Shown: in pieces, positions 19,646 to 45,845 of the stretch | Position numbering within the stretch: position 1 is the stretch's first letter | Layout of the letters: the number at the start of each line of letters is the position of its first letter | DNA from: a virus | Lineage: Duplodnaviria > Caudoviricetes | IMG/VR virus record: IMGVR_UViG_3300020049_013434 | Coordinates: 30,451-94,450 of that record | Strand: one strand, 5' to 3' | DNA: 64,000 bases | Position numbers and translations under genes: made by a program | Notes under the pieces: generated by a model | What the model saw: only the letters and a program-made list of their open reading frames with translations | Told to the model about the DNA's origin: nothing | The model's database searches: none

Positions 19646-19669
19646 TATCCCTTAGAATTCGGGGTTTTT
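19646..19669 (-). promoter_or_regulatory. Late-promoter activator box, copy 2 (overlaps end of LuxR gene)
   Basis: AAAAACCCCGAATTCTAAGGGATA then TGC-TATGCT at the same 21-nt spacing, upstream of the protease/capsid operon. Confidence 0.75.
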
Positions 19670-19891
19670 TCGGAGCAGATTGACTGAGGACGTGTTAATG
19701 TGACCGTCGATAAGCAGCGACACAACCGCTGAGGTCCGATTAGGCGTTCTGGTCTTCTCCATGATCCTCGCGACGTATTCCTGCGCTGTGCGGGCGGTTA
19801 TGGTCAACTCCCTGGCAATCTGTACGTCGCTGTAGCCGGCAGCGACTAGCAGGGAGACTTCCATCTCCCGTTTACTCAAGAGATTCGACAT
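19652..19891 (-). CDS. LuxR/GerE-type HTH regulator, candidate late activator
   Basis: LSKREMEV..LVAAGYSDVQIARELTITARTAQEYVARIMEK..NRT. Confidence 0.9.
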   Translation of the reverse strand: MSNLLSKREMEVSLLVAAGYSDVQIARELTITARTAQEYVARIMEKTRTPNRTSAVVSLLIDGHINTSSVNLLRKNPEF

Positions 19892-22487
19892 GGGCAGCTC
19901 CGTTCACTGAAAACGTAACCGGCTGGATATTCTTGCGCGCATACTGATCGTCGAGAAAGTCTTGTGCTTCCCGCAGAATCTTCTTCTCTTCCTCGGTCTG
20001 GGCAGCGTTAGGCTGGTTGGTGGAGCCGACGATATCCGGCGTCGCCTGCGCCATCTGCTCCTCCATTTTCGCCTCTTGCTCTTCGTGGTGCTTGACCAGA
20101 TAGGCGTACTGGGCTTCGTTAATGTCGCCGGCATCAAGCATGGTCTGGAAGGCGACTACGGCATTAATCTGCTTGGACTCAAGGCGAATCTGCAGCTCTT
20201 CTGCGCGCAGCTTGCGTAGCTCGCCCTTAATGCGATCCTGCTCGTCGTCCTGCTGATCAAAGGAGGGTAGACAGGACATGGGCACCCACTTCTCGCCCAG
20301 CTCCGTCGTTAGGCTCTCTACCCACACGCCAGGCGTCTTGCGCATGGTCTTAAGGTGACTCACTTCGGCGTCTGCCCTGGTGGCGCCACGCACGGTCGCC
20401 GGCCACAACTCACGTGGGTCAAAGCCGTAGCCCATGGCGACAATGTTAATGCCAATGTTGACGCTGGTCTCCTCGTCGTACCCCTCCGGTAGACGCTTGA
20501 GAGGAATGCGTTCAATCGAGGCAGCCCGAATCAGCTCTGGTGCGCCACGGATACCAATGTAGGCAAGCTTGGAGTGGCGGGTTAAGCCCTCGGCGTCCGC
20601 TTTGAGATCAGCCTTGGCGAAGGCGTCAGCTAGGTCGTCAACCGAGAAGCCACGCCCAAACACGATTTCGCTGACCGGTCGTGCGCCGAGCCATTCCTCT
20701 TTTAGTACGGAGATGTCGGTTAGGTGGAGGGCGTTGGAGATACAGCGGCTTACCGCCGAGACGCCAACGCCAAACATGTTGAAGCGCGGGCTTGGCATTT
20801 GCGAGGTAAAAAGAACACGCGTGCGGTGCAGCTTGTAGCGGTGATACTTGCCCTTCTTGTCGCGCGTCTCAAAGATCACGGGATACTCTGGATCGCCGGA
20901 TCGAGTACAGTTGTGTACGATCATGTTGGCGGCAACAAAGTTGTGATTATCCATGACATCAATACAGAATGATGCGGCTTGACCGCCGTTGTACACCTGT
21001 TCTACCGAGATCACCCTATCGTAGTAAATCGGTGACTTCTCTGGTTCCCACAGGGAAGGGTCGTAGGCTGGCGCATTGTCCGGGAGTTTGTAGCGTAGGC
21101 ATGGCGGAATATATGGACCAACCATAGCGGCAAGAGCGGCCATTCCGTCAGCGCTAATGCGAATCTGCGGATACGTCCTCCCGGTACGTTTGTCATGACT
21201 GTACACCGTCTTGCACCGAATCCCAGCGGAACACATGATATCGCACAGCCAGTCTACATCCTCTGGATCGAACGACATTGCTGCAATTTCTCCGCCTGGC
21301 CGTCCCCAGTTGTTCTGCTTCTTTATCATTCTACCGTCATCGGCGTACCAGGCAGCCAGCATTCTTGGGCCAAAGTGTGCTTCTACAAGCTGCCGATTGA
21401 CGATTTTCTTTCCGTCTGGATACCACATTTCCCGCCAATCTCCCAGGCTGGGAGTATTGAGCGACTGGGTTCCAACGCACGTTTTATGTAGTCTTCGCGA
21501 GAAGGTGAAGTCGCGAAGATAGCGCTCCTTAATCGCCATCCACTCTTCCTGAACTCTTCCATGCATAAATTGCAAGCACGACTTTCCTGAGTTGTACTGA
21601 CGACCAATGAAGGCGTCGCCAAGAACCGTACCAACCATGAGCTCTGCCTGCGACTTTGTAAAATCAGGAAATGGGGTCGCGATTCTGCTTTCGGTGGTTA
21701 AATCCTCTGCTCTAACCCATCCGCTTGTTGTTAACATTTCATGATCGTTGGTAACTGTGATGCCCTCCTGTCTACCATTCCCTCTGTACAGTGAATGGGC
21801 AAGATTTATTCTCAGCCACTTTCTGTCGCCAAGGCGCGACTCATGCCAGCCAACAACCGGCTTTGGCTCAAGGTTTCCGTCCGGGCCGAGCGACATTACG
21901 CTAACCTTCATCTGTCCGCGCACGATATCAATAATTGGAATTACTGACCCGTCTTCGAGCATCACTCTGGTTGTGCGATCGAGACACATTTGACTATCAA
22001 GGTGACGCAGTCCAAGCCCGTACAGGTAGGTCTTTGTGCCTGGCACCAGAGTTGGCTCAATCGGTCCAGAGGGGTCGCCGCCACCGATGATCTCGGCAAA
22101 TGCGCCGTTGTCCTGCGTCTGCCAGTCGATAATGAAGGGCAGCATTTCGCGGGCAAAGGCGAGGCGAAGGAGAGCGCTCGACCAATAAGCTAAGTCACGA
22201 TTACGCTTGTTCTCTTTATCGCGCGGCATGACGCCAACGGGAATCGAGAAGAGGCGGGACGAGGTCACGTTAGTGGTGGAGAGAAGAATGTCGCTGCGCA
22301 ACAACGCCTCCCACAGAAATTTGTCGCGCTGCCTGCTCCACCACGGGTAGACGCGCTCTGAAATAAAGATTGGGTTGACGCGGATGCCGGTAAGTTGCGG
22401 TTCTTCGATCGTCGGCTGCGGGGCAAGCCGCGACGTTGTGTCCACGGCAGCGACTAGGTCGCGCGTGTCCTCGTACTGAGACGCCAT
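19872..22487 (-). CDS. Portal protein with LAGLIDADG intein
   Basis: DNGAFAEII and GVGVSAV portal-like motifs; position upstream of protease/capsid; intein in frame. Confidence 0.8.
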   Translation of the reverse strand: MASQYEDTRDLVAAVDTTSRLAPQPTIEEPQLTGIRVNPIFISERVYPWWSRQRDKFLWEALLRSDILLSTTNVTSSRLFSIPVGVMPRDKENKRNRDLAYWSSALLRLAFAREMLPFIIDWQTQDNGAFAEIIGGGDPSGPIEPTLVPGTKTYLYGLGLRHLDSQMCLDRTTRVMLEDGSVIPIIDIVRGQMKVSVMSLGPDGNLEPKPVVGWHESRLGDRKWLRINLAHSLYRGNGRQEGITVTNDHEMLTTSGWVRAEDLTTESRIATPFPDFTKSQAELMVGTVLGDAFIGRQYNSGKSCLQFMHGRVQEEWMAIKERYLRDFTFSRRLHKTCVGTQSLNTPSLGDWREMWYPDGKKIVNRQLVEAHFGPRMLAAWYADDGRMIKKQNNWGRPGGEIAAMSFDPEDVDWLCDIMCSAGIRCKTVYSHDKRTGRTYPQIRISADGMAALAAMVGPYIPPCLRYKLPDNAPAYDPSLWEPEKSPIYYDRVISVEQVYNGGQAASFCIDVMDNHNFVAANMIVHNCTRSGDPEYPVIFETRDKKGKYHRYKLHRTRVLFTSQMPSPRFNMFGVGVSAVSRCISNALHLTDISVLKEEWLGARPVSEIVFGRGFSVDDLADAFAKADLKADAEGLTRHSKLAYIGIRGAPELIRAASIERIPLKRLPEGYDEETSVNIGINIVAMGYGFDPRELWPATVRGATRADAEVSHLKTMRKTPGVWVESLTTELGEKWVPMSCLPSFDQQDDEQDRIKGELRKLRAEELQIRLESKQINAVVAFQTMLDAGDINEAQYAYLVKHHEEQEAKMEEQMAQATPDIVGSTNQPNAAQTEEEKKILREAQDFLDDQYARKNIQPVTFSVNGAAHVESLE
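20910..21986 (-). mobile_element. Intein with LAGLIDADG homing endonuclease (359 aa)
   Basis: Starts CLDRTTRV, block B TNDH, GTVLGDA and AWYADDG endonuclease motifs, ends HNFVAANMIVHN followed by Cys. Confidence 0.9.
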
Positions 22488-22571
22488 ATATGCATTCCCT
22501 TCACACCTACATTCTCACACTCTCACAGTAAGATTGTAGGCTATAACCGACAGAAAATCAAGTACTGTATA

Positions 22572-23096
22572 TTATGTCTCGCTACCAAGCACTTTTTTCT
22601 TCCAACGGTAGTAAGTTGCCCTATGAATACCGAGCAAAAATATTAGCCCACGCTCGGTCACCTGACCACTTTCGACGTAGTGATAAGCGCGCAGAAAGCG
22701 CTCGCGACTCATTACCTTGGGTCGTCCGCCGAGCTTGCCATTCTCCTTCAATTGATCGATAAAGTGCCGTTTCCGTTCAACACGCACGGACGCGGCAGCT
22801 TCATCGATACGCTTGAGGAAGTTCAGGGTATACTCGCGAAAAGGACCAGCCGTGTCCAGATTGCCGTCAAGTACACGAAGATTAGCCCGGCGCTTCTCTA
22901 GGACAAAGCGGATAAACTCGTAGAGCTTATCTTCCTGCATGTACAGGCGATCGAGTGCAGTGACCACGACTGTATCGCCGGGGGACAGTCGATCACGCAC
23001 GCGTTCCAAACTATCCTCGATAATGGTGCAGCCTTGGGCGCGCAATCGCTTGAACTGGCTGCCGTCCTTATCGTCTCGCAAGAGTCCAATGAGCAT
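22572..23096 (-). CDS. Degenerate serine resolvase-family protein with HTH
   Basis: GDTVVVTALDRL, GGRP and GIHRATYYRW are retained, but GYARVS is replaced by GLLRDD. Confidence 0.75.
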   Translation of the reverse strand: MLIGLLRDDKDGSQFKRLRAQGCTIIEDSLERVRDRLSPGDTVVVTALDRLYMQEDKLYEFIRFVLEKRRANLRVLDGNLDTAGPFREYTLNFLKRIDEAAASVRVERKRHFIDQLKENGKLGGRPKVMSRERFLRAYHYVESGQVTERGLIFLLGIHRATYYRWKKKVLGSET

Positions 23097-23097
23097 G

Positions 23098-23931
23098 TTA
23101 CCCCGTCCGAATGTCTGTGTACTCGTCCACTTGTGGCACCTCTTTGACCGCCTGCGCATAGGCTCGTCTTGGGTCGCCGTGTTCGTTCATACGGCGCCAG
23201 AAGGCGTAGGTGAAGTCGGCGGCGTCCTGCGTGTCAATGTCCTCCTTGACGAAGACAACGCAAGCCAGCCCAGCCAGCTCATCGGCGACAGCAGAGGTCT
23301 GACAGGCAGCCAGGAAGATCACATCAACGCCGGTCACGTTCTCATTCCACCAAGCCGGCTCTGCAATGCCGTCGACCAGGTGAACGCCTTCCTTGTTCGC
23401 GTGGGAGGAGACGTGCATCCACTTGTACATATTGTTGTCCTGGCGATGCCTGCGCAGCTCAGATACAATCTCTGCCTTCGTGGCGTTGACAGTACGCTTG
23501 AAACGCACGTTGGCACGGCGTAGCGCTCTTCGATCGAGCTCACACATGGCGGTGTCGCCACAGACGACGAGCAGGTCGTTACCGGAGGCTGATTCCTCCA
23601 TGAGCCTGAGCGACGGACTATTCATACTCTTCTCAGCAATCACCTTCTCCAGATCGCGCACGCGAATGCCCTTGTTTTGTAGCTCTTCGATCAAAAAAGT
23701 TACCCTGCCCTCAAGGGCATGGATACGCTCGTCGTCGGCGCGCTTAATACTCTCGTAGCGCTCTCTTTGCTCATCCATATCTTGCTTGAGCTCGGCGATC
23801 TTTTGCTCATGCACAAGCGACTGTTCGGACTCGCCGATACGATGACCGAGGCGGCTTTCGAGCCAGCGCAGCAAGGAAAAGCTTGCAACGACAATTGCGA
23901 TTACAGTGACAACATCACTATTTAGGACCAT
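23098..23931 (-). CDS. Membrane-anchored coiled-coil + CHAT (caspase-like) protease
   Basis: N-terminal TM, coiled coil, then MHVSSHA (His) and FLAACQT (Cys) dyad motifs and IDTQDAADFTYAFW. Confidence 0.75.
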   Translation of the reverse strand: MVLNSDVVTVIAIVVASFSLLRWLESRLGHRIGESEQSLVHEQKIAELKQDMDEQRERYESIKRADDERIHALEGRVTFLIEELQNKGIRVRDLEKVIAEKSMNSPSLRLMEESASGNDLLVVCGDTAMCELDRRALRRANVRFKRTVNATKAEIVSELRRHRQDNNMYKWMHVSSHANKEGVHLVDGIAEPAWWNENVTGVDVIFLAACQTSAVADELAGLACVVFVKEDIDTQDAADFTYAFWRRMNEHGDPRRAYAQAVKEVPQVDEYTDIRTG

Positions 23932-24495: not shown

Positions 24496-24533
24496 TGATC
24501 AAAGCGGAAATATTCTTAGTGCGAGGAGCATTC

Positions 24534-25160
24534 ATGATTGGTCAAGCACGCATGGGCGGCGTTTTACATGCCCGAAAAATCAAGCGACCTGTTGCGCCAT
24601 TGTCCTGGCGCGTGCGCAACGCCCTGCGCTGGACTTATATCTGGGGCGTTATCACAGTAGCGGCCGCCAAGCTGTTTACGAAGGTGACCGGCGTACCGAC
24701 GATTACCAGTCAGTTGGCAGTCAAGGTCAATCGGGGTCAGGGCTGGGTGGACTATGGTGTTGTCAGTCGACGCGTGGTGACAGACGCTGGGGTAGCATTC
24801 ATAGTCGACGCTTGGCAGAATACTGTCGAGCTCGAAAATATGAAGTACCACGGCGTCGGTACGGGAACGACAGCGGAGGCAGCGAATCAGACAGCGCTCA
24901 TTACGGAGTCCACGACCGCGCTCGACCCCGACAGCACGCGCGCCACAGGGACGCAGACGGAGCCGGCAACCCACCAGCTCAAGAGCGCCGGGACTGTTAC
25001 CTTCGACGCTAGCGCCGCGATCACGGAGCATGGGCTTTTTTCCGCCTCCGCAACTGGGACGGGGGTTCTTTTTGATCGGAGTGTCTTTTCTGCGATCAAC
25101 GTGGCTTCGGCCGACAGTATTTCCTTTGAATACACGGTCACTTTCACCTCTGGTGGATAG
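24534..25160 (+). CDS. Virion structural protein (opposite strand to the main module)
   Basis: VVTDAG...GVGTGTTA..ANQTAL..E...ITEHGLF...GVLFDR pattern of phage tail/fibre-base proteins; GAGGAG RBS; driven by a late-type box. Confidence 0.65.
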   Translation: MIGQARMGGVLHARKIKRPVAPLSWRVRNALRWTYIWGVITVAAAKLFTKVTGVPTITSQLAVKVNRGQGWVDYGVVSRRVVTDAGVAFIVDAWQNTVELENMKYHGVGTGTTAEAANQTALITESTTALDPDSTRATGTQTEPATHQLKSAGTVTFDASAAITEHGLFSASATGTGVLFDRSVFSAINVASADSISFEYTVTFTSGG

Positions 25161-25221
25161 GTGGTTATCCAAGTTGCAACGAACTGACTTGTGTGCTACA
25201 ATTGTATCGGAGGTTAACGAT

Positions 25222-25302
25222 ATGATTAAGACATGCGAGAATTGCAATAAGGAATTTAAGGCGCGCCAAGAGTCAACAAGGTTCTGCAGTAGGTCAGCGT
25301 GA
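25222..25302 (+). pseudogene. Truncated zinc-finger fragment (HNH N-terminus-like)
   Basis: MIKTCENCNKEFKARQESTRFCSRSA* after a GGAGG RBS; stops without the expected last Cys. Confidence 0.35.
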
Positions 25303-25373
25303 GACCGACAAGACGGACAGCACCTGTCAGCGGCAGAAGCAATTGTTAACGTGTTCGAGGATAAGGTTCAGAG

Positions 25374-26021
25374 ATGGATACTGTTTGTCGTCGCACTCTT
25401 TTGGCTCGTGTCTATCTTGCTTTTGCACTTTTCTTCCTAGCTTCGTGCATTATCCCGGAAAGTAAGCCGCAACCCCGCGGCTTTTTGTCACCCCTCAATG
25501 TCCCACTGCCATTAGCCTACAACAACTATCTTCCGGCAGTCTCCGGCGCGCCGCTCTCTGACGATGCCGTTTGTTTTGGCTCTGAGGGCGCCCTACAGTT
25601 CTACAATCGCCTGAAGGCGGATAGTCGGCAGCATCGTACCATCATGCGCTGTAACCGCTCCCTTGTGGCTGCAGCGAAGGCTAGAGCGCAATCTCTCGTA
25701 GCCACAGACCATTGGGCACACTGCGATCCGGGTGGCAAGGTCTGCGCAAACAGCTATGCCGAGTCCCGTGGCTGTCGCTTGCCCAATGATTATGTGGTTG
25801 ACGGCAATAATATTGAGAGTCTTGGTGGCGGCAGTCCCGATATGCAACCAATTTATAATGCCCTGGCAGGTAGTCCGAGTCACAGCGTCCACTTGTTTGC
25901 CAGAAACAACGACGGCACGAAGAGCGCCTTCTTTGTGCGCCAGACCGAAGTGGGCATTGCCGTGGCGGAAGGCGGCAAGTTCGGCTGGGTCTGGGTCATT
26001 CTGATTTCTGAGTGCGCGTAG
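25374..26021 (+). CDS. CAP/SCP-domain lipoprotein
   Basis: Lipobox LASC, YLPAV motif, AAKARA..HWAH, GSPSH, EVGIAV. Confidence 0.75.
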   Translation: MDTVCRRTLLARVYLAFALFFLASCIIPESKPQPRGFLSPLNVPLPLAYNNYLPAVSGAPLSDDAVCFGSEGALQFYNRLKADSRQHRTIMRCNRSLVAAAKARAQSLVATDHWAHCDPGGKVCANSYAESRGCRLPNDYVVDGNNIESLGGGSPDMQPIYNALAGSPSHSVHLFARNNDGTKSAFFVRQTEVGIAVAEGGKFGWVWVILISECA

Positions 26022-26310
26022 CCAAGCCAAGGCGTTCCCGAATGGGATGCAGATTTCCCGGACACTCTATCGCCCCGTACAGCATAAGAACCAGATCGGT
26101 CAAGTTGTTAGCGCCCGTCTTTGCATAGATCGTGGAAATGTGTCCGGCCGTCGCCGATCGCGAGATTGTTAACTTCCTCGCAATATCGTTGAGATAGGTG
26201 TGCCCCGCCATGACAAGCAGCAACACCTCCGTCTGGCGCCGCGTCAGGCTTCTTCCGTACAGCTCGCCCAAGTCGCGCGCCAGATCGTCAGATCTTACTC
26301 GCGGTCGCAT
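25996..26310 (-). CDS. Second LuxR-type HTH regulator
   Basis: LTRRQTEVLLLVMAG..IARKLTISRSATAGHISTIYAK. Confidence 0.85.
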   Translation of the reverse strand: MRPRVRSDDLARDLGELYGRSLTRRQTEVLLLVMAGHTYLNDIARKLTISRSATAGHISTIYAKTGANNLTDLVLMLYGAIECPGNLHPIRERLGLATRTQKSE

Positions 26311-26846
26311 TATGCCTCAGTCCACTGCCAAGTCAGCCCATAGCTCGTGTGGATATTGTAGCGGGGCTGCTCTATGCTGCCCAACCCCATGCCATTGACC
26401 TTATCGGCGAGACCAACTGGTGCGGCATTGTATGCCGGCGCCGGTGCGTACATGTCGAAGTTGGCAGCCCACGGCTCACCTTGCTTGGCTTCCGTCTTCA
26501 TGTCGACAAAGGCATTTCCCCATGACACACGAATCTTCTCTCCGACCACCCTGCGCCCCGCCTTGTCCAGTAACTCCACAAAGATATGGTGACGCCCACC
26601 TGACTCATTTTCGTCCATCCAGACGGCTTTTACGAGCTTCCAGTAGTCCGATCCTGGCGCCGGATTCGCTAACTCAAGCGTGGCTCCCCGCACAGTTAAG
26701 CGCGGGTCCCAGTTCGTCGGCGTCGGTGGCTTTGGCGGCTCCACAGGACCCTCCACATCCGGCACAACCACAATTGGAATAAAGATCCGATCGTCGCCCT
26801 TCTCCAGCAGTGCCTTCAACTCCTGTATCGATATTTGACTGTTCAT
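26310..26846 (-). CDS. Host-type surface/cell-wall domain protein
   Basis: IFIPIV motif, Pro-rich linker, WDPRL...GGRHHIFV...GMGLG...HTSYGLTWQ domain recalled from Chloroflexota proteins. Confidence 0.5.
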   Translation of the reverse strand: MNSQISIQELKALLEKGDDRIFIPIVVVPDVEGPVEPPKPPTPTNWDPRLTVRGATLELANPAPGSDYWKLVKAVWMDENESGGRHHIFVELLDKAGRRVVGEKIRVSWGNAFVDMKTEAKQGEPWAANFDMYAPAPAYNAAPVGLADKVNGMGLGSIEQPRYNIHTSYGLTWQWTEA

Positions 26847-27635
26847 GAACTCGCTTCTCCTCAAACAAGATACTCGTCAGCAACTCTCTGTTACCGGCGT
26901 GGTCGTCCTCACTAGGGTGCAGCACCCAGAGCAAGGTGTCCAGACGTTGGTACAGGTACACGCTCTCGTCCGTCGTCTTGTCAGACTCAACGAAGAGCTT
27001 CAGTAAGCCCTCGTAGCGCCGCTCGATCTCATATCGGGAGCGCATGGTAAAGCTTGCCTTCGCTGCAGCCTCCCAGCCCGCCTTGATATGCGGACGCAGG
27101 TCCTGCCACTCTGGAATGACTGTACCGTCGTAGGCGAGTCCGCCAACCTCCGTGCGATAAGCTTCAAACGCCCGTTTTGCTTCTTTCATAAATCTCCTCT
27201 ACTTCTTTTCCTAAAGGAACGACCTCAATGTCAAGCCAGAACCGAGTAGCCATAATTGGCGCACTCAGGTCGGTTCTCTCAAACTTATCGGCATTGTAAA
27301 ACAGGTCTCTTCCGACAAACGTCGTCTCAACCTTCCGCCATACGTATGCAGCGTCCGATCCGCCTCCAGCACGTATCCATTCGTCGTTCATTCGGAAGAA
27401 CCTGCCAACCTCAAGCTCACCGAATGGAACTGTCGCCTGCCCGCTCACCGACCACCTCCGACCGTCTTAACGCCGGCAACAATCTGTATCGCTTGGTCTC
27501 CCGTGAAGTCCTGGTCGAGCAGCGCCTTGTACAGCCGGCGATACAGCTTAGCCGTCGCCTCCATGACCTGCGGCTTCGACATGATCTCAAGCGACTGCAG
27601 GGTTATCTCGGTCGCCTTATCCATTTCACTTTGAT

Positions 27636-28124
27636 TCATACTGTTATCCTATCTGTTTTCTCACTATGCCTTTGACATACCGGCATATCTTCAACAAAGC
27701 TAACGGCAGGGAATCCGCACTCGCACCAGCCGTAGCGTCCGATACCCCACAAGTGGCGCGGTCGCTCCTGCCCAAGCTTTACAAAGTGATAGCATGGGTC
27801 ACACCAGCCTGACCGAGAGTGCTCGACGGACGCCAGGGGGACGCTACAGGTCTTGCATGTGTACTCCGGGTCCCACAGGTGCCTTGGGCGCTCCTTCTTG
27901 TTGCGGCGGTGATAGTTGTGACAGGGTCCGCAACGCAGGTTTGCCACCAGTTCCGGCGACCCGCAGTTCTTGCACCAGCGCGGTTTGTTTTTCTGGTGAC
28001 GACCGAGGATCTTTGTGTAGAGCTTTGCCGGTCGCTCCACGCCGTGCAGGTTATAGTAGCGCAGGCAGGCGTTGCAGCGATTCTTGGCGTATACTTCGGA
28101 TCGATTGCAGTTATCACACAGCAC
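27636..28124 (-). CDS. Tandem GATA-like zinc-finger protein
   Basis: Three CxxC-xn-CxxC-(Y/H)..ERP repeats, e.g. CNACLRYYNLHGVERP. Confidence 0.6.
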   Translation of the reverse strand: MLCDNCNRSEVYAKNRCNACLRYYNLHGVERPAKLYTKILGRHQKNKPRWCKNCGSPELVANLRCGPCHNYHRRNKKERPRHLWDPEYTCKTCSVPLASVEHSRSGWCDPCYHFVKLGQERPRHLWGIGRYGWCECGFPAVSFVEDMPVCQRHSEKTDRITV

Positions 28125-28654
28125 AAGTTGCTCCTAAATTGCTCGCGAAAATTGCCACTTTCAAAAGCTATTCAACCGCGCCTTCAAGCTTCTAGTCCAG
28201 GCAATCAGGTATATAAAGCGATTCCAAAACCTGTACTCCGCATTGATCATCCACACGGGCGCCAGGCAGCGGGCAATGACGTAGGGCGACTCCAGTAGAC
28301 GCCAGCCGTCATCCTCCCTGAACTCCCACTTCTGGCGCAATAGCCAGCTCTGCAAGAGCATTAGGATCGGGCAGGTATATCTGGTATTGAGCGCCCATGG
28401 CTGCTTTTTTCTCATGACTTATCCTCCACTGCGCCTATCCATTCGCTTAGTATCTCGGTGATGCCCATTGTGTCGAAAATGAATTTGCAATCTGCCAATG
28501 TGCGGATCTCGCCTTGCTCATAGGCTTCGCGCACGATATGAGCTATCCAACGCGCTTCAATTAGCGACATTTTTTACTCCTTAAAATAGGTTGGCATAAC
28601 TTTCTTTTTATACCAACCTACGGCTTGATACAAGGACCATTTAATTAAGCTGAT

Positions 28655-28692
28655 CACTATTTCCTATACGGTTAGCCGTATAGGAAATAGTG
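28655..28692. terminator. 17-bp perfect inverted repeat
   Basis: CACTATTTCCTATACGG-TTAG-CCGTATAGGAAATAGTG. Confidence 0.6.
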
Positions 28693-28753
28693 CCAAATCG
28701 TCCCAATCTCAGTATCACTGGCAGCGTTGACACAAAAGTAGACTTGTCAACAG

Positions 28754-29335
28754 TTATTCAGAGCTATCTTTCCCGGGATCATTCCACTCAGATAGTTCTG
28801 TCGAGACATCTATCAGGGAATAAGCCTCAAGCGCTCTCTTTATGATATCGATTGGTACACAAACGTTTCTGGTAACGTACCCTTTGTTCTTCGACGTGGA
28901 CAAAGAGAATCCTTTTTTGCGTTCCTGACCCCACTGTATCCACTGCTGACCGCGCGCCAACCAGACGCGTCTCAGTATATGCCATGGAAATAGATAGCAT
29001 TTCTTGGTTGGCATAATGGCGTATGCGAGATAGTCAATGGCTAGGTCCTTCGCCATCCACCCAGGAGCACCAGTCGTATCTACAGACACATATTCCAGTA
29101 AGATATCGCCATAGTCCTTCTTGCGTTTCTTCTCATCTATAGCAACGGTAAGACCGTTTGCTAGATATAGAATTCTATCTACGCCCATGCGCTGGCTAGC
29201 AGTATCTCCCTTGCACATCATGTGGTTCACAAGGTTGGGGAAGGCTTTCTTGTAAACTGCATCCCAGAACGGTTCGCAGCTCGCCCGCTCACTATAGGCA
29301 AGCTGTTCGTTGAAACTGTGAACTATGTTACTCAC
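28754..29335 (-). CDS. PD-(D/E)xK-like nuclease
   Basis: GVDRIL...AIDEK...DILLE motif arrangement. Confidence 0.55.
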   Translation of the reverse strand: MSNIVHSFNEQLAYSERASCEPFWDAVYKKAFPNLVNHMMCKGDTASQRMGVDRILYLANGLTVAIDEKKRKKDYGDILLEYVSVDTTGAPGWMAKDLAIDYLAYAIMPTKKCYLFPWHILRRVWLARGQQWIQWGQERKKGFSLSTSKNKGYVTRNVCVPIDIIKRALEAYSLIDVSTELSEWNDPGKDSSE

Positions 29336-29699
29336 GCTCGGCCGCCTCCCTGAAGTCTTCTTGCATAACAAGCGATCTGATCATGCCCAACCGATCTTCC
29401 GTATAGTTGTCGCATAGCCAGTCGTCCAAGTAAGGGTTCTCGTAAAATGGTTGCTTCTCCAGCAGGAAACTAATCTTCTCAACTACCCTATGACAATTAG
29501 GACATAGGTGAATCAGATTATCCGGCAACCCATCACCGCCATCCTTAACAGGTACGATATGGTGTATCTCGCCGGTAAATGGACAGTAGAATTCACAAAT
29601 CTCACAGCGACATCTCGCCCTATCATAGACAGTTTTGGCAAAGAACTTAGCTTCATTTCTGCTCTGCCTTGCCTCCACCTTTCTTTCTAGCTTGTTCAT
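29328..29699 (-). CDS. HNH endonuclease
   Basis: CEIC...EIHHIVPVKDGG...NLIHLCPNCH. Confidence 0.9.
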   Translation of the reverse strand: MNKLERKVEARQSRNEAKFFAKTVYDRARCRCEICEFYCPFTGEIHHIVPVKDGGDGLPDNLIHLCPNCHRVVEKISFLLEKQPFYENPYLDDWLCDNYTEDRLGMIRSLVMQEDFREAAERE

Positions 29700-30943
29700 G
29701 CCTGGTTCCCCCATGCCTCCCAGCCATCGCGCCGATTGCGAGCAAAGAGTTCTATCTTGTCATACTCCGGGTACATTTTCTCTATGATTCCATAGAACTC
29801 CTCTGGCTTTGCGCTGTGTTTCTTGTCTCTTCGTATACGGACAACAGAAGGAGGTCTGTTTTTATCTTCTGGGACGGGTAGCGAACCCTTGGTCGCAAAG
29901 AGTAGAAGTTCATGCTGCTGCCTGGCGTAGTAACCCATTCCCATAACTTCCTTGTCCCACACCATGCATGTCTTGTAGGTGAACCCCCACGACTCAATGA
30001 CATGCATGGCATCTAGGAGCTTAGGGCTAGTTGCCCAAAGAATGAGTACGCAATCTGGTGCGGCAACTTTGTCGATCGGGAGAGAACAAATCTTGTCAAC
30101 GCTCATGGTTGGATATTGATTCCCGATCTCCCGACTCTCCGTCTCACTATGATCGTATTCCCACGGCGGATCGGCGTATATGACGGGGTATAGTCGATTT
30201 ACCACCTCTGTCAACGGCTTGTTTCCCTGCGATATCCTGTTAATCTTCTCTACTCGTTCAGCTCGTTTCTCCGCCGACTTCTTCGTGCGAATCTTCTTAG
30301 ACGCCTCAACAATCTGCTTCGGACCCTGAGCTACGATAACGATCTGGTCTTCCGGGGGGGCCTGGGCAATGATGGCGGCTGTACTGACGGCAACGTGCCC
30401 TTCCTTGACAGCCCGAACAAGCTCATCGCTTCCTTGCTTCCTAACCGTCTTCGCATCCTGTATGCTTCGAGGACTAACGCCAATAATCGCTGCCGCTTGG
30501 TCACGAGCTTGTTGAGCTCTATCCCCTGACCGTTGAGGCAAATTTGCCTCAACGGTGGCGGCATTCTGCTTCAGTGTGGATAACTGCTTTTTATGCGCCT
30601 CCTCCTCTAGCATCGGCAGAATGTCTGCGCCAATCATAGATGCTTGACTTGGTGTCAAATGCCGGCGCTTCAGATTTAGCGACACCACAAATCCGACCAG
30701 GCTTCCCTTTCCGTCCCAATAGCGAAACTTTGGCGAAATGCCAAGCTCGACGCAGGCCCGGTGCCGGTTGCGGCCGTCGACGATCGTGTGGCTTTCCGGG
30801 TGAAGCCAGACCGGCTCAAGGAGACCATTGGTTCTTATGTCTTCCTTCAGCCCTTCGTACTCTGCACCCTGCATGAGTGGAAAGATATTGGCGACCTCGT
30901 GATACTGTCTCTCTGCTTCCGCTGATTCTACAAATGGGTTCAT
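29696..30943 (-). CDS. ParB-like N-domain + MT-A70 family adenine methyltransferase
   Basis: IVDGRNRHRAC and NLKRRHL ParB motifs; YADPPW, HSAKP, IELFAR MT-A70 motifs. Confidence 0.9.
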   Translation of the reverse strand: MNPFVESAEAERQYHEVANIFPLMQGAEYEGLKEDIRTNGLLEPVWLHPESHTIVDGRNRHRACVELGISPKFRYWDGKGSLVGFVVSLNLKRRHLTPSQASMIGADILPMLEEEAHKKQLSTLKQNAATVEANLPQRSGDRAQQARDQAAAIIGVSPRSIQDAKTVRKQGSDELVRAVKEGHVAVSTAAIIAQAPPEDQIVIVAQGPKQIVEASKKIRTKKSAEKRAERVEKINRISQGNKPLTEVVNRLYPVIYADPPWEYDHSETESREIGNQYPTMSVDKICSLPIDKVAAPDCVLILWATSPKLLDAMHVIESWGFTYKTCMVWDKEVMGMGYYARQQHELLLFATKGSLPVPEDKNRPPSVVRIRRDKKHSAKPEEFYGIIEKMYPEYDKIELFARNRRDGWEAWGNQA

Positions 30944-31344
30944 GGCTGCCCCCAAGGTGGTAGAATTTCACAGGCTATGTCGTCCTTGTCGTAGTCGAGC
31001 TTGTGAACATCGAACCCTGCGACGATCTTGCAGTACGCGAATACATGCTGTGCCTCTGGTTGAGTGTCGAAATCCGAGCAGTTGTACGCGTCATGGTCGC
31101 AGATAAAGAAGAATGGATCGGGAGTTCGCTCGCCAGTCGGTGTAGGCATGCTCGTAGATTCCTGGGTTGGATGCGGTGTCGAGGTATTGGTTGGCAGCGG
31201 CGTTGGGGTCGATGTAGCCGTTGGCGGCGCAACCGCCACAATCGGCAGGTATTGATCGTTCTGTGGGATGGTCTGCCCGCTTGCCGTCCACGAGCCGAAT
31301 AGGGCAAGTGTCGCAAGCGCGAGCATGGGTAAAAACTTATTCAC
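30940..31344 (-). CDS. Secreted Excalibur Ca-binding domain protein
   Basis: Signal peptide, YLPIV, PT-rich linker, YNCSDF...LDYDKDDIACE. Confidence 0.8.
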   Translation of the reverse strand: MNKFLPMLALATLALFGSWTASGQTIPQNDQYLPIVAVAPPTATSTPTPLPTNTSTPHPTQESTSMPTPTGERTPDPFFFICDHDAYNCSDFDTQPEAQHVFAYCKIVAGFDVHKLDYDKDDIACEILPPWGQP

Positions 31345-31547
31345 TTTGCATTCCTTTTCACTATCCCCCTAGCCGCGCCTCTCACTGCGCAGTGCTATGG
31401 AGTTTACTTGAAACTTGTGCTACAATAGAATCATGTACGACATAGCTCTCGGCGTTCTGCTCTGTGCTTACATTATAACCGTAGCTTGCTACGAAAGCGC
31501 TCTACACAGACGCAACGTGCCGAATCAACCCAAGGATACCGACCGCG

Positions 31548-31895
31548 TCAAGCCTTATTGGTAGACCGGCTGCGCAGTCGTTCGATACGCGCGATCTCGA
31601 AGTCAATGTGATTGCGTGCCTTCTTCAGATCCTTCACCTCGTCCTCGCCAGGCTTCCGACCGGCCCGCCAAATATAGCCCATTGCCGTCGCCTTGTTGTA
31701 AGAGAAGTCCTGAATCACGTCGACCGCCTGCAAGCCCCATATAGTAGGGTGATCATAGTAGTGCGGCTTGGCGATCTCACCTGAGTCCCCAATGGCTGTA
31801 GTCTCACCCAGCGTCTCCATCATCCTAGATGGCCCAGGATGATTTTCGCTTCCAAAAACAAATACTTCCCCTGGCTCCAATTCCCTAAATAACAT
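31548..31895 (-). CDS. DUF3310 family protein
   Basis: KPHYY...YIWRAGRK..DLKKA. Confidence 0.75.
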   Translation of the reverse strand: MLFRELEPGEVFVFGSENHPGPSRMMETLGETTAIGDSGEIAKPHYYDHPTIWGLQAVDVIQDFSYNKATAMGYIWRAGRKPGEDEVKDLKKARNHIDFEIARIERLRSRSTNKA

Positions 31896-31903
31896 ATCTC
31901 CTC

Positions 31904-32479
31904 CTATATTCTCGCCGTGGTAATGCCCGTCTGCGCCTGGTACTTGCCCTTGCGGTCAGCGTAGGACACTTCCGGCTGGTCTCCCTCGAAGAATAAGCAC
32001 TGGGCAATTCCCTCGTTGGCGTATATCTTCGCCGGCAGGGGCGTCGTGTTCGAGATTTCGATGGTGACGTGTCCTTCCCAGCCCGGTTCAAATGCCGTGA
32101 AATTTGTTATGATGCCCGTCCTTGCGTATGTTGATTTTCCAAGGCATATTCCCAGAACGTTGCGTGGCATACGAAAATACTCCACGCTGCGCGCCAGGGC
32201 AAAGCTGTTGGGCGGAATAATGCAGACCGGGCCATGGAACTTTGCCATACTGCGCTCGTTATGTACCTTCGGGTCAATCACGGTCAGCTCGCCCGTCGCT
32301 GTCGTGAAGATCAAGAACTCGTCCGCCACGCGCAGGTCGTAGCCAAAACTACTGAGCCCATAAGAAATTACGCCCTCGCGGACCTGTTTTTCCACGAAAG
32401 GCGTAATCATCATTTGCTCTAAAGCCATGTGCCGAATCCACCAATCCGGCTTAATGCAAGAAAAACTATCCACTATCAC
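31904..32479 (-). CDS. dcd: dCTP deaminase
   Basis: [39 protein letters not shown]; start codon uncertain. Confidence 0.95.
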
Positions 32480-33065
32480 TCCCTTCCCATATACCCGCTT
32501 CAAATAACTTGTTGCCATTCTTCGCCAGCCAGTCCTTCGCCTTTTGCGTGAAGGACCAGGACACCCGACCTGAATCGTCCGACTTACCACGGTCCAACCA
32601 GGGCACCGTAGCTGTAGCCAGGTTGTTCAGCGCACTGTACGCCGCCTTCTCGTCCATGCCCATGCCATCCGCCACGTCGCCCGAGGTGAACTGGTAGAAT
32701 CGACCAGAGTCCACCATATTGTTGAGCAAGTGTTTCAGTACCGCATACGACTGTGACTCCTTGCCGCCACGCACCTTCGCCGGAACCTTCAACTGACCGC
32801 CAACGACGTTTTTGGCAACCCCGTTAATCTTCTTTGCTAACTCTCGGACCTTCTGCGCCTCGTCGTTCGGCTCAGGCGTCAAGTGAAGGGTGAGGGCGCC
32901 TTTCATGACGCACTCCTGGGTGAGCAAGCTGTTCAGGATGAGTTCTTCAAGAATGATTTTGCGAGCGATCGCCTTGTACATGGCGGGATCAAAGACGGTT
33001 TGAGTTGATAATCGGAGCAATGCATTGAATTCTTCGTCGGTGAAAATTAACTCTACGACCTTCAT
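32466..33065 (-). CDS. Hypothetical DNA-binding protein (C-terminal wHTH-like)
   Basis: [24 protein letters not shown]; own promoter at 33090-33127. Confidence 0.45.
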
Positions 33066-33089
33066 GGGCTTTTGTCCTTTCTGACAGAA

Positions 33090-33127
33090 ATTTTATCATT
33101 TATAGAGCAATCTGTCAAACGGGAAAA
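33090..33127 (-). promoter_or_regulatory. Sigma70 promoter with TTTTCCC extension
   Basis: TTTTCCCGT-TTGACA-17-TAAAAT. Confidence 0.7.
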
Positions 33128-33227
33128 AGGGATAGGTTTGGCGAGCAAGAAATACAAGCTTGCTCGCCGAGGTCAATCTGAAGCACGACCAAGGAGGTCT
33201 TAAGGATACCATGAATTCCTGGTAAAG

Positions 33228-35135
33228 TCAACGCGATTCAACCACCATGCGCTCAATTGTCAACTTCGTGTAAGCGCCACTACTGGCGTCAACCTGGTCG
33301 TCATGCTCACGCTTACCGAAGGCGATGTAGAGCGACAGCTCCTTGATATAGGCAGCATTCCACTCGGCACGCTTCATCCGCACGTTGCCGGCGTTGACGT
33401 AGGCGGAGAAGGGGCGGCTGCGCACGTCCTTGTTATCGCCCGGGCGGTCAATCATGACCTCGTACCCGGCGAGCTTGCGCTGCGTGGCGTAGGCGACCTG
33501 CTTACCGCTGGCGGCCGGCTCCTGCTCAATCCAGAACTGCATCATGCGCCGCGACTTGCCGGCATACTTGTAGGCGTCAAGCTTGATTGTCTGCTCAATC
33601 TGCTTCTCGACGTCTTCCGGCGCCCACTGCCCACGCAGTACGTCTTCAATGTAGACAAAGCCATTGTCGTCAATCGCCATGAGCACGCCCACGGTCCAGT
33701 CGCCCTTGCCCTCACTGCCGGCACGGTCGAAGTAACGCACACGATCGGCAGCCACCGGCACCTCCTCGACGACCTCAATGCGCTGGGTCTTTATCGTATA
33801 GCTGGCTTCGCTCTTCGGGTTCTGCTGGTACAACCCCTGGAAGTCGCGCCCCATTTCATTCTCAATGGTGATCAGATCCTGAATGGGCAGGCGTGAAGGT
33901 AGAATACTCTCGCCCTTGTGGCGCCCCAGAGCGTCCTTCTGTGGGTCGTCTTCGATGGAGATGGCAGGAATGGTCAACACGGTCCACTGCGAGGCTGTGG
34001 CGGAGCTCAGGATGCGTCCAGTTAGGTCCTCTTCGGTCCAGCGCGTGTGAATCAGAATGGTCGGCGTCTGGCTCAGGCGGTTACGACGGGTGCGCAAGTC
34101 GTTGAGCCACCAGTTCCAGACCATGGTCTGATAGGTTGGGCTGTGCGCCTCAGCATAGCTTTTGATTGGATCATCGGCGATCAAGCAGTTATGGACGAGT
34201 ATGCCATTGGCGAAGAAATTCTGATTATCCTCGATCTGCAAATCGAAGACTCTGTCAGTCTCCTCTGTAACGAGAATGCTCTCGACGGTTTCTGTTCTAC
34301 CGTCAGTTCGTAGTAGCTCAAAGCCTTTTTGCAGCCACATAGCGGGCATGTAGACGCCAATTGCCGGTAGAAATATCCGGTGCTCCGGCGTGCATGCAAA
34401 GAAGGAGCCATCGCTCAGGGAAACTCTGCACAGAGTTTCGGTTTTCACCTCGCGCGTAGCCAGTATATCCTTGTACTCAGGTTTGCGCAGCTTCTGATTA
34501 TACGACAGGACGAGTGGTGGACTCTTGTAGGCGCAAAGATCCTCTATTGATACCGGACCAGCGATCGTGTCGATCAGTGTTTCGGCAGTTAGGCAGTCAG
34601 CACCAAAGCCAGCGACGCTACTTCCAACGCCGATAGCTTTCACCATCCCACCGTAGATAGTAGACCATTCATCGGCGAGACTAGACTCTACCGTTAGAGG
34701 CGTTATCTCCTGATAAATTTTCAGAGACTCCTCGCTAAAGTTCTTGGCTAGATCCTTGTTGTATGCACCGATAATGACCTTGTTTGTTGGATAACGCAAA
34801 AGCCAAAATACCGGGAGACGGATCGTCACCAGGTTCGATTTTCCCGTCCGTGGCGGAATGTTGATAATGAGCTGGGTTATCTCCCCATCCAACACCGCCT
34901 GGACATACTCTATGATTTTTACGTATACAGGACTATCCCAGTCCATTTCTGGGAACTCACGCTTGAGCCAGTCGTGATAGGGCGTGTTGAGCGCTTCCTC
35001 GCGGCGTTGGGCATAGCGCTGCTGTTCAGCCACACGCCGCTCACCCTCACGCGCCATTTGCTCGGCGACACGCCGGTCGGAGATATTGTGCTCACGCATG
35101 ATGTACTGCGTGATGCGGTCGATAGATGTTGCCAT
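33228..35135 (-). CDS. Terminase large subunit with mini-intein
   Basis: Walker A IPPRTGKS, Walker B LIADD, TRW, YQQNP, nuclease HDDQVDA. Confidence 0.95.
   Translation of the reverse strand: MATSIDRITQYIMREHNISDRRVAEQMAREGERRVAEQQRYAQRREEALNTPYHDWLKREFPEMDWDSPVYVKIIEYVQAVLDGEITQLIINIPPRTGKSNLVTIRLPVFWLLRYPTNKVIIGAYNKDLAKNFSEESLKIYQEITPLTVESSLADEWSTIYGGMVKAIGVGSSVAGFGADCLTAETLIDTIAGPVSIEDLCAYKSPPLVLSYNQKLRKPEYKDILATREVKTETLCRVSLSDGSFFACTPEHRIFLPAIGVYMPAMWLQKGFELLRTDGRTETVESILVTEETDRVFDLQIEDNQNFFANGILVHNCLIADDPIKSYAEAHSPTYQTMVWNWWLNDLRTRRNRLSQTPTILIHTRWTEEDLTGRILSSATASQWTVLTIPAISIEDDPQKDALGRHKGESILPSRLPIQDLITIENEMGRDFQGLYQQNPKSEASYTIKTQRIEVVEEVPVAADRVRYFDRAGSEGKGDWTVGVLMAIDDNGFVYIEDVLRGQWAPEDVEKQIEQTIKLDAYKYAGKSRRMMQFWIEQEPAASGKQVAYATQRKLAGYEVMIDRPGDNKDVRSRPFSAYVNAGNVRMKRAEWNAAYIKELSLYIAFGKREHDDQVDASSGAYTKLTIERMVVESR
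34188..34595 (-). mobile_element. Mini-intein (136 aa, no endonuclease)
   Basis: CLTAETLI...TPEH...NFFANGILVHN followed by Cys, just before Walker B. Confidence 0.9.
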
Positions 35136-35149
35136 TCGCTCCTCTGAGA

Positions 35150-35291
35150 GATAGCGAAGGCGGAAGAAGGCAGCGGGCGGTCCCCAGGAGTGTGAGAGTT
35201 AGGGGACCGCCCTAGTGAAAGGAATGCATTAGGGTCCACAATAAAAGGAGTATCGAGCTAACGCATTAGGGAGCTTTGGCTTCTCCCCGAT
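35150..35291 (-). ncRNA. Candidate sRNA / terminase leader complementary to the portal RBS
   Basis: Consensus promoter upstream; 11-bp GC hairpin; 15-nt and 10-nt blocks complementary to the portal 5' UTR. Confidence 0.55.
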
Positions 35292-35296
35292 AGTCA

Positions 35297-35325
35297 ATTA
35301 TAACTTACGATATTTCTCTTGTCAA
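35297..35325 (-). promoter_or_regulatory. Consensus sigma70 promoter
   Basis: TTGACA-17-TATAAT. Confidence 0.85.
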
Positions 35326-35438
35326 TGGGCGATCAGCCTACTTATCACCTAGTCTTATCGTACATATTGCCTAAGTTTAGTTTTTCCGTAAGGAACTTGT
35401 GCGCGTCTTCGAGAATGCGCATGAATTTCTGGTTGTTC

Positions 35439-35930
35439 TCACTTCTGATTCTCGCATATAGAATCATTGCGCCGATTAGTTCCAGCATTGCCTGGTCGGC
35501 GCCCTTTGCTGCGGCTAGACTTGAGAAAATCTCCGCTGCGGAGGTGTTCGATCTCATCTTTGTCAATGGGGTCTCCGTCCGAGAGTCTAAGCTGGCGGAA
35601 GAGCAGATTGCGGTATGGAATAATGACTTCTTGGTCGTCTTCCGACTTCCAGACAGCCGGTTCTCGCACATTTGCAGGAATCTCGGAAGGCGGCTCTATG
35701 CCGTGAATCTGCGCCAGCTTCTTGTAGTCCGCCTCACTCTTTAGCCAGTGCTTATTGCAGATAACACACCCGCGCTCCTTGACGCGCTTGTAGGAGCGCT
35801 CTACCTCATGCCCGTTCACACAAATCCACTTAGTCTTCTCGGTTACCGAGTGAGGCACTTGCCCGATAAGCTGCCAGCCCAACTCCTCGGCTAGCTCCTC
35901 ATAGTCTTCACGATACTTTTGTCTTGGCAT
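35439..35930 (-). CDS. Treble-clef zinc-ribbon protein
   Basis: KTKWICVNGHE...GCVIC, plus a degenerate second copy. Confidence 0.55.
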   Translation of the reverse strand: MPRQKYREDYEELAEELGWQLIGQVPHSVTEKTKWICVNGHEVERSYKRVKERGCVICNKHWLKSEADYKKLAQIHGIEPPSEIPANVREPAVWKSEDDQEVIIPYRNLLFRQLRLSDGDPIDKDEIEHLRSGDFLKSSRSKGRRPGNAGTNRRNDSICENQK

Positions 35931-36223
35931 AATCCACTTCTAATTGAGACTGAATGCACTGAGCAGACGGTGGGCTTGCCGCTCCTGCTCCTTTATGTGT
36001 TCGATGTCGGTCTCATCGATCTCGATTCCTGACAGCCGCGCGAACTCTCGCAAACCTCTCGCCTCACTGGTAAGCCCCTTGATTTCATACTCTACGATCA
36101 GTCCAACCAACACAGACAGGGGTGCCTCAAATACTAACATGTGAGCCTCCTTGGCATGGTACTACGAAAAATGTAGTAATGAGAGCTTATCACACGGCGC
36201 AAAACGCTGTCAAACACAAAACA

Positions 36224-38130: not shown

Positions 38131-38243
38131 CCCTTTATTCTAGCATATACCGCTTAGACTGTCAAGTGGGAAAATACGGTTTGGTATATTCTGCCTTTTT
38201 GGCGACCGGCAGCGAGCTGGTTGAGATATGCTGATCGAAGAAC

Positions 38244-38789: not shown

Positions 38790-40009
38790 TAGCCGCCTCC
38801 GTTGACCATGATATGCGATTCCATGTAGGCTCTCGTGATTTCGACTGCCTCCCTACGGGTAAAGCCGTTGCGCATGAGCGACTCACGCATGATCCCCAGT
38901 GCCTCACACAGCAACTGGATACCGTCGTTCGCCAACTGCTTACGCTCCTCCAGGGTGGGCTCGCGAGTGGGCTCGTCGTCCTCTTCGTCACCACCCAGAT
39001 CCAACTTGTCCCAATCAATGTCATTTGCCATAACGCTTCCTTTCACTTGTTGTGTCTACACGAATGTCAGGCGGGAAAATGCTAAATAACGCTGCTGATA
39101 CTATTTGCGACCGCAACCAATGTAATCCACTCCAGAATGCGCAGATTCTTCTCGTAGGTCGTGTGGTTGTCCCAGGCTGACCCATGCTGCTCTAGGTGGT
39201 AGCTGATCTGACCAGTAGGCAGCTCTATGAAGGCGACGGGCCACTCCGGCTCTGCCGGGTCAATGCGAATGCCGGCGGAGAGTCCACACCGTCTCGCCAA
39301 AGCCATAGCCTCGTACACAAACAAGGTGCGGTTGTCGTAGTGAATTTTGTTTCCCGTCTCAAAAGCTAGTCCGTCATGATACTTCAACTCGATCAGCTTC
39401 CGCGCCAACTGAATTCTCGTCGTATCCATTTTCCCTCCGCCCTAAACAAAAGGGGCGATTCCCTCTCTCAAAGGAATGCCCCCTCTTTCGATACCGCCGC
39501 CACCAACGAACCGTATCTATCCGTATCGTCTACAGATTAGACTCATTTTACCAGATAATGCGCAGATAGTCAATTGGCAATCTGTCAACTGGGAAAACTA
39601 ATCTTCGTATAAGTCGTACTTCTCGCAAATCTTGTCCAATGCCACGTCGCCCTTGTATGTGCCAAAGCCGTTGTATGTGTTGACCTGGCGCCTATACTTC
39701 TGACCAGGTACGATCACACCCTTCTGCCGTCGCATTCTAACGATATCGCGGAGTTCTGCATAGGTAAACATGCCGTCCTCATAGCAGTTCATGATCAGCG
39801 AGTAGGCGTCACACTGGTGATTCTTGCGCGCTACGTGAACAGAGTCAGATATTATCCACATTGGTTACTCCTTATAGAACATAAACAATAGTGAGTATAT
39901 TATACTACTAGATTGGTCGAATGGGAAAAGGGTAAATGGGGAGATTGTGGTTGGAGGGGACGGCCTAGCATTCCCCGTCCGTCGTTAAGGATTATACAAA
40001 AATATTCCC

Positions 40010-45807: not shown

Positions 45808-45845
45808 TTTTCCCACTTGACACTTTTAGCTGCATACGGTAAAGT
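45808..45845 (+). promoter_or_regulatory. Early promoter
   Basis: TTTTCCCAC-TTGACA-17-TAAAGT. Confidence 0.75.

Follow-up and report, generated by a model that had tools for sequence, protein, structure and literature searches.

Terminase and portal are conserved parts of the DNA-packaging machine, and their genes usually lie side by side in one operon. What, then, is to be made of a phage in which the two genes lie 12.7 kb apart and the leader of the one carries, in two separate blocks, a complement of the initiation region of the other? The 64,000-nucleotide window analysed here is the right-hand 64 kb of an IMG/VR virus record of 94,450 bp that has terminal repeats of 121 bp (positions are those of the window unless marked 'genome'), and public sequencing runs place the phage in wastewater and sludge. 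A preliminary description of the locus, made from the letters alone, had proposed that an RNA started in front of the terminase gene terL is antisense to the ribosome-binding site (RBS) of the portal gene and represses its translation. Sequence comparison supports the view that the complementarity between the two leaders is not a matter of chance and that it recurs in lineage-specific form in four further phages. The reading to which we incline, with only a little more confidence than doubt, is one of pairing in trans between the terL 5' UTR and the initiation region of portal, with further initiation regions as probable partners.

The identity of the gene at 33228-35135 as terL is solid by its protein matches (Table 1), and that of the gene at 19872-22487 as portal is probable. 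For the 871-aa product of the latter Pfam and PHROGs give intein and LAGLIDADG endonuclease domains only; intein-free homologues are ~505 aa long, and the non-intein part returned no match in Pfam (run on an intein-free homologue), PHROGs or the PDB (profile search), while the AF2 model, with a pLDDT of 47.5, is too poor for a fold search. The label 'portal' is accepted as probable because the gene directly follows terL in the distant relatives L017 and L184, and because the nearest clusters in the ESM Atlas are portal proteins (0.96-0.97).

Table 1. Features of the terL and portal loci and of further candidate partners of the terL leader; positions are those of the window unless marked 'genome'.
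Feature	Position	Strand	Description
Large terminase gene terL	33228..35135	-	635 aa, mini-intein inside; PHROG 38 at 2e-69; Terminase_6C, Intein_splicing, PT-HINT
Sigma-70-type consensus promoter of terL leader	35297..35325	-	TTGACA-N17-TATAAT, 12/12; -35 at 35325-35320, -10 at 35302-35297
Predicted terL 5' leader	35136..35291	-	~156 nt, strongly structured
Anti-RBS block	35215..35229	-	ends 2 nt 5' of hairpin; pairs with portal 22504-22490
GC-rich hairpin of terL leader	35175..35212	-	11 bp, arms 35212-35202 and 35185-35175; 16-nt C/U/A-rich loop 35201-35186
Hairpin-loop block	35188..35197	-	complement of portal-leader 5' end; includes complement of genome-wide loop motif AGUGAGAG
Probable portal gene	19872..22487	-	871 aa, interrupted by LAGLIDADG intein; synteny and ESM Atlas neighbours
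Promoter-like site of portal gene	22533..22561	-	TTGATT-N17-TACAAT, 9/12; predicted start ~22526
Predicted portal 5' leader	22488..22526	-	~39 nt, 25 nt complementary to terL leader
Portal Shine-Dalgarno region	22490..22504	-	target of anti-RBS block
Hairpin-loop target near portal message 5' end	22513..22522	-	other register 22519-22527
Resolvase-like HTH protein gene	22572..23159	-	without catalytic serine; upstream of portal; Pfam Resolvase, profile positions 49-144 only
LuxR/GerE-type HTH gene	19652..19891	-	overlaps portal stop; GerE 9e-13
Leader module of gene 30940-31344	31347..31392	-	hairpin with loop AGUGAGAG, then shared RBS cassette; second predicted terL-leader partner
RBS cassette sites	genome 224-238; window 22490-22504, 31347-31362, 48023-48036, 53410-53423, 57248-57257, 62377-62391, 39037-39047(-)		
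AGUGAGAG-loop hairpins	window 22526, 31385, 47997, 53396, 57190, 60826; genome 206, 4672, 8500, 12921, 18780		

Each of the two packaging genes contains an intein, which is a mini-intein in terL and of the LAGLIDADG type in portal. Intein content turns over fast in this clade, since a 98% relative (L004) has in its terL (919 aa; L004 10001-12760) a larger intein, of LAGLIDADG type, and a 99% portal homologue (P0122, 512 aa) is intein-free. Between terL and portal, L004 further carries an IS200/IS605-type Y1 transposase gene, TnpB-like (OrfB_IS605) genes and a HindIII-type restriction-modification pair (19553-19945, 22133-22760), all absent from the window. Elsewhere the window holds tandem paralogous genes of ~505-518 aa with periodic 1.54-kb repeats (5333-8503), a 24-39-nt element in three copies and both orientations (15398-15436, 19646-19669 and 24445-24483), one copy of which overlaps the end of the LuxR-type gene, and a family of promoters with a conserved upstream element abutting TTGAC (38136-38175(-), 45803-45841, 50229-50267 and 55816-55854; genome ~160-200) that are probably early or middle promoters.

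The preliminary description had placed a consensus promoter at 35297-35325 on the minus strand and an RNA start some 155 nt before the terminase gene. The site matches the consensus at 12/12 positions, is the only such match in 22300-35600 and predicts a start at ~35291-35288, which yields a leader of ~156 nt. The predicted leader is strongly folded (MFE -60.4 kcal/mol, z = -4.84 against 200 shuffles); its 3' 105 nt are identical in L004, and an Rfam scan of 22300-35600 at E <= 1 returned no family match. According to predicted accessibility, opening the loop block costs 0.0 kcal/mol and opening the flank block 4.8 kcal/mol, and a local hairpin is predicted to hide the Shine-Dalgarno (SD) sequence of terL itself, GAGGAG. 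After the 11-bp hairpin there is no U-run: a terminator scan was blank at 35175-35212 and the tail is C-rich. Of the earlier proposal of a loop-initiated small RNA or attenuated leader, the loop and flank architecture that suits such pairing holds good, and the discrete RNA of 120-140 nt is not predicted; rather than a discrete sRNA, the terL mRNA's 5' UTR or a piece processed from it is the likelier pairing RNA. Contigs built from two RNA and two DNA runs over 22300-35500 are short and of low depth, and gaps in them carry no weight; those from the two RNA libraries cover 35097-35377, but evenly also the promoter and the whole stretch, and may stem from carried-over DNA. At these low depths the contigs of the same runs contained no usable variants at the pairing blocks. 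The region of the anti-RBS block (35215-35232, minus strand) also reads as a five-codon mini-ORF (AUG ... UAG) within the terL leader, and the palindrome AUGCAU inside it could allow two leaders to pair with each other.

The portal gene has a promoter-like site of its own, the core of which is conserved in two of the related lineages described below (B and C), and its short predicted leader is by itself not unusually structured (z = -0.05), with the SD in a loop and accessible by prediction. Against this leader the terL leader offers two blocks. The anti-RBS block (35229-35215) faces 22504-22490 with 14 Watson-Crick pairs and one G-U (U35220 with G22499), precisely the 15/15 match with a single wobble that had been reported. 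The loop of the 11-bp hairpin had been said to pair 10/10 with the same portal leader, and 35197-35188 is indeed the exact reverse complement of 22522-22513, a 10-mer found nowhere else in the window, at a distance of ~5-14 nt from where the portal message is predicted to begin; a second register brings loop positions 35199-35191 against 22527-22519 over 9 nt. The two blocks are collinear and antiparallel, as described, with the wobble as the only departure from perfect pairing, and every coordinate of the earlier account stands. Between its two blocks the terL leader has a stem arm for which the portal leader has no counterpart, which argues that the blocks were kept separately and were not copied as one tract. 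As the transcription starts are predictions, a portal message that begins 3' of 22513 would lose the loop target.

How much such a match is worth depends on the background. Single inverted matches of 14/15 are nothing unusual in 64 kb (473 inverted pairs were listed); a 14/15 match accompanied by a collinear exact 10-mer within 20 nt is expected, by our estimate, ~0.004 times per window. The duplex between the terL and portal leaders of this phage (lineage A below) reaches -41.1 kcal/mol vs -27.7 +/- 3.0 for dinucleotide shuffles, and the observed duplex energy was attained by 0/1000 shuffles in A, 0/1000 in B and 11/1000 in C; with the loop alone set against the portal leader, the shuffles reaching the observed value numbered 78, 2 and 612 of 20000, respectively. 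RNAduplex applied to whole leaders has a background inflated by purine/pyrimidine bias, and run lengths, comparisons of cognate with non-cognate pairs and accessibility-corrected energies were used for that reason. The corrected energies amount to -12.3 and -11.7 kcal/mol in A (-11.7 being the net value of the loop block), -17.4 in D and -10.1 in E, and are weak in B and C (-0.3 to -7.2 kcal/mol).

Relatives were drawn from protein searches of the Logan and JGI assemblies, which besides near-identical copies of A (L004 and others) define five lineages: A, the window; B (L006/L013, one contig); C (L007/L014, one contig); D (L098/L099, on two contigs from a single sample); and E (L100, one contig). 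Their TerL proteins are 70% (B), 80% (C), 67% (D) and ~46% (E) identical to that of A, the last value being that for P0007, the match corresponding to the 649-aa intein-bearing TerL of E. A nucleotide search of the phage collection with 33000-36000 gave no match, IMG/VR scans with the TerL protein, the TerL alignment and the portal alignment gave relatives of <=40% identity or none, and a JGI metagenome scan with the TerL alignment gave relatives of <=42% only. In the lineages with both genes on one contig (A, B, C and E), terL and portal are 6-20 kb apart. The resolvase-like HTH gene lies immediately upstream of portal in A, B and C and, by synteny, nearby in D and E; the LuxR/GerE-type gene adjoins portal in A, C, F, L016 and L017 and is near it in B. 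The resolvase-family protein has an Asp at the position of the nucleophilic Ser in its N-terminal motif and an intact HTH, and may be a DNA-binding protein.

All five lineages repeat the same plan, a TTGAC(A/G)-N17 promoter with a -10 element, a terL leader of 100-160 nt and a GC-rich hairpin of 10-14 bp, and they do so with hairpin stems of unrelated sequence and with loops of 14-16 nt in A-D and 7 nt in E. The longest Watson-Crick runs between each terL leader and its own portal leader are 10 (A), 11 (B), 9 (C), 14 (D) and 9 nt (E), or 15, 11, 10, 14 and 11 nt with G-U allowed. In B, 11 loop nucleotides match the first nucleotides of the portal message and a bulged match over the SD lies just 5' of the hairpin. 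In C, where the matched block is a GU-repeat, 8 loop nucleotides address the portal 5' end, 9-10 nt abutting the hairpin address the next segment and 6 loop nucleotides address the SD. The match of D is a perfect 14-mer: it stops 1 nt short of the hairpin, takes in the portal start codon and has nothing in common with the motifs of A. In E 9-10 nt pair over the portal SD. Four of the five lineages (A-D) have the block directed at the initiation region ending 1-3 nt 5' of the hairpin. The very start of the portal message is matched by the loop in A, B and C, and weakly so in E; in 5/5 lineages the pairing reaches over the SD or start codon of portal. A 5 x 5 matrix of every terL leader against every portal leader has the highest value of each row and column at the cognate pair; cognate pairs beat all 20 non-cognate ones, and of 120 permutations the identity is the single best. 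No match above background (<=8 nt with G-U) was present in L017 and L184, where terL adjoins portal, or in L016, where terL lacks a leader of its own. The co-variation in related phages that had been put forward as a check is thus borne out by lineage-specific cognate matches in four more lineages and by their absence where the two genes are adjacent. Complementarity, co-variation and the layout of promoter and hairpin are the observed part of the explanation. The asymmetry between G-U and A-C appositions, examined as a test of which strand pairs, was not decisive (top runs sum to 61 vs 57). No SD can be recognised before the terL start codon of B, C or D, and between the hairpin and this codon runs a C/U-rich tract (L006 5509, L007 5494, L098 2658); E alone has a weakly U-rich tail after its terL hairpin.

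The preliminary description had singled out the portal message as the target, a scope that turns out too narrow, and had remarked on a related SD before gene 31344, which is real (31362-31347). In A a shared RBS cassette with the core GUGAAAGGAA, often extended on both sides, precedes ~10 unrelated genes, among them a DnaB-like helicase gene, gene 31344, portal and several unknowns. The anti-RBS block extended by 2 nt is the perfect complement (15/15 Watson-Crick) of the RBS at gene genome 240, matches 11-13 nt of the cassette of ~10 genes, and fits the cassette of gene genome 240 as well as, or better than, that of portal. Among 147 TIR windows of the genome, with a mean duplex energy of -20.4 +/- 6.0 kcal/mol against the terL leader, portal ranks first (-42.5 kcal/mol), followed by gene genome 240 (-40.4) and gene 31344 (-40.3). 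In E the best matches of the terL leader, 12 nt including the start codon, belong to two other genes that have a 17-nt initiation region in common, one peculiar to this lineage (L100 9867- and 19385+), with 9 nt for portal. The loop of B matches generic AAGGAG-type RBSs of two other genes, and the matched sequence of D is not a repeated cassette in the DNA available. As judged from these sequence matches, portal may be one target among several.

The loop of the terL hairpin carries, in addition, the complement of a motif that recurs through the genome. At least 11 hairpins have variable stems of 4-12 bp and in common a conserved loop of 8 nt, AGUGAGAG. They lie on the same strand as the neighbouring genes and stand in front of or between genes, often with ~35-45 nt between them and a start codon. 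The genome has 15 GTGAGAG sites, of which 11 lie in hairpin loops with stems of >=5 bp and 12 in loops with stems of >=4 bp (binomial P ~1e-11). None was seen in the fragments of B-E, which cover only the late region, where A also has few. Protein binding, processing and kissing are candidate roles for these loops.

From these elements the following course of events can be proposed. A near-consensus host-type promoter would produce the terL leader, which would act as an antisense RNA pairing in trans and would present two single-stranded elements, the block 5' of the stable GC hairpin and the large C/U-rich loop. The loop would contact the free 5' end of the portal leader first, as the architecture of loop and flank would suit, and the adjacent block would then pair over the portal SD or start codon. 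On the duplex model the most likely outcome would be reduced binding of the 30S subunit to the portal message, and since the SD or start codon is involved in the pairing of every lineage, repressed initiation would be the simplest result; alternatively, pairing at the extreme 5' end might stabilise the portal message or create an RNase III site. We infer that both RNAs exist with the ends given here and that they meet in vivo, and the sign of the effect is likewise a deduction. Portal output would be tied to the level of the terL transcript, the LuxR-type gene overlapping the portal stop would be co-regulated, and in A other messages with the same RBS cassette would probably be paired too. The pairing seems to belong to phages in which terL and portal have become separated, and why a terL message should repress portal is not obvious. 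A wider proposal makes the terL leader the hub of a phage-wide RNA network, in which the complement of the cassette together with loop-loop kissing to the AGUGAGAG hairpins would set the translation of a whole gene set. This is tentative and, in our judgement, rather unlikely; if true, the leader would do as an RNA what a translational repressor does as a protein, and would stand in for the lost physical coupling of terL and portal.

Any other account has to explain the same blocks. Chance similarity between a pyrimidine-rich and a purine-rich leader could appeal to the frequency of single 14-15-nt inverted matches in 64 kb and to background duplex energies between biased leaders that already lie at ~-20 to -28 kcal/mol, but two collinear blocks, recurrence in five lineages and cognate pairs above all non-cognate ones leave it next to no credibility. 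The blocks are also inverted repeats with a resolvase-family gene just inside one of them, and might be recombination sites at which the adjacent serine-recombinase homologue inverts the 12.7-kb segment. Yet the resolvase-like protein lacks the catalytic serine motif and its Pfam match leaves out profile positions 1-48, the sites have no dyad symmetry, and an inversion would detach both promoters from their genes; moreover, the arrangement is the same in all A contigs (window, L004, L005, L008-L012) and in B, C and E, with the qualification that contigs drop rare variants, and strand-switch joints were not found at either site in the short, low-depth contigs of the RNA and DNA runs, one of which crosses the terL site in this arrangement, all of which makes inversion extremely improbable. 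A shared binding site for a sequence-specific protein, resolvase-like HTH or LuxR-type, present in opposite orientations and co-evolving with the protein, would agree with the conservation of both HTH genes beside portal. It is very unlikely all the same, for the matched sequences differ wholly between lineages and include SD and start codon, and two blocks at variable spacing, one of them in a hairpin loop with a co-varying stem, are atypical of a duplex-DNA operator.

Two further accounts deserve more weight, although each is improbable in our estimation. The terL leader might be an inverted relic of the repeated leader cassette on the plus strand, kept like the other copies by recombination or gene conversion and without any role in RNA pairing. 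The plus strand at 35175-35229 does show the order of a hairpin with a GUGAGAG loop followed by the cassette, like the leaders at genome 240 and at window 31344, 48040 and 53428, with, in the position of a start codon, an AGG that differs from ATG at one base, and the antisense copy in E has an ATG that opens an 85-codon frame. But neither a plus-strand promoter nor a plausible ORF was found there, and the frame in E, antisense to a gene with a 43%-identical homologue in A, is probably spurious; a decaying copy would not keep pace with changes peculiar to each of five lineages, the stem arm between the blocks would be lost under gene conversion from the portal leader, and D's matched sequence, as noted, is no repeated cassette. 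The other account, held no more probable, is that the leader acts purely in cis, its hairpin and anti-SD-like loop and flank controlling the translation, stability or Rho-dependent premature termination of terL, with the complementarity to purine-rich RBS leaders as a by-product; such control could coexist with pairing in trans. It agrees with the CUCC or CCUC cores of the loops, which resemble the 16S anti-SD, with the sequestered terL SD of A, with the SD-less terL of B-D and their C-rich, G-poor, rut-site-like tract after the hairpin, and with the generic RBSs matched by the loop of B. The matches nevertheless exceed SD-like cores, as A shows with its 10-mer at the 5' end of the portal message, D with its start-codon 14-mer and C with its GU-repeat block; composition-preserving shuffles rarely reach the observed values, and non-cognate pairs of similar composition score lower.

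Pairing of the terL leader in trans thus remains our preferred reading, and its interest lies in the distribution of the match: in a phage group with terL and portal 6-20 kb apart, exactly those genomes carry a co-evolving mirror of the portal initiation region in the terL leader. If functional, the pairing would make an mRNA leader act in trans on a virion-assembly gene of a lytic-type phage, and the idea is directly testable since the co-variation supplies ready-made compensatory mutants.

A literature search for an antisense precedent involving terminase or portal found none, and comparison has to be sought in other systems. T4 RegA is a protein translational repressor that acts on the initiation regions of many phage messages; it offers a functional analogy only, for the multi-target reading, where the factor would here be an RNA. 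The RsaE/RoxS-type sRNAs of Gram-positive bacteria use pyrimidine-rich hairpin loops to pair with the SD regions of several mRNAs, and are free-standing, with intrinsic terminators and short generic C-rich seeds, whereas the matches here are 9-15 nt long, lineage-specific and placed within an mRNA leader. Nearest among known systems comes c4 of phages P1/P7, a discrete antisense RNA of 77 nt that acts on the ant message in immunity control; its short complementary segments, exposed by structure, pair around an RBS and block translation (Citron and Schuster 1990, as reviewed in PMC12197685). The terL leader would pair in a similar way, and in both cases the sequences of regulator and target differ in step between related phages. 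Unlike in c4, the elements described here sit in the 5' UTR of the terL mRNA, with neither an evident processing site or terminator that would release a small RNA nor an Rfam match, and the target is the message of a structural gene 6-20 kb away in another transcription unit. Closest in logic is bacterial mRNA-mRNA coupling, as in Listeria monocytogenes, where such regulation is reported to couple a virulence factor with its chaperone (PMC8722363). There the UTR of one mRNA pairs with another, as the terL leader would, and keeps linked proteins in step; the system differs in being cellular and in its reported coupling effect on a single partner. In the phage the predicted pairing covers the RBS of the target, which suggests repression, and several targets are likely. 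What sets the terL leader apart from these known systems is that an mRNA leader would act across operons on a packaging gene, without a terminator and probably on many targets.
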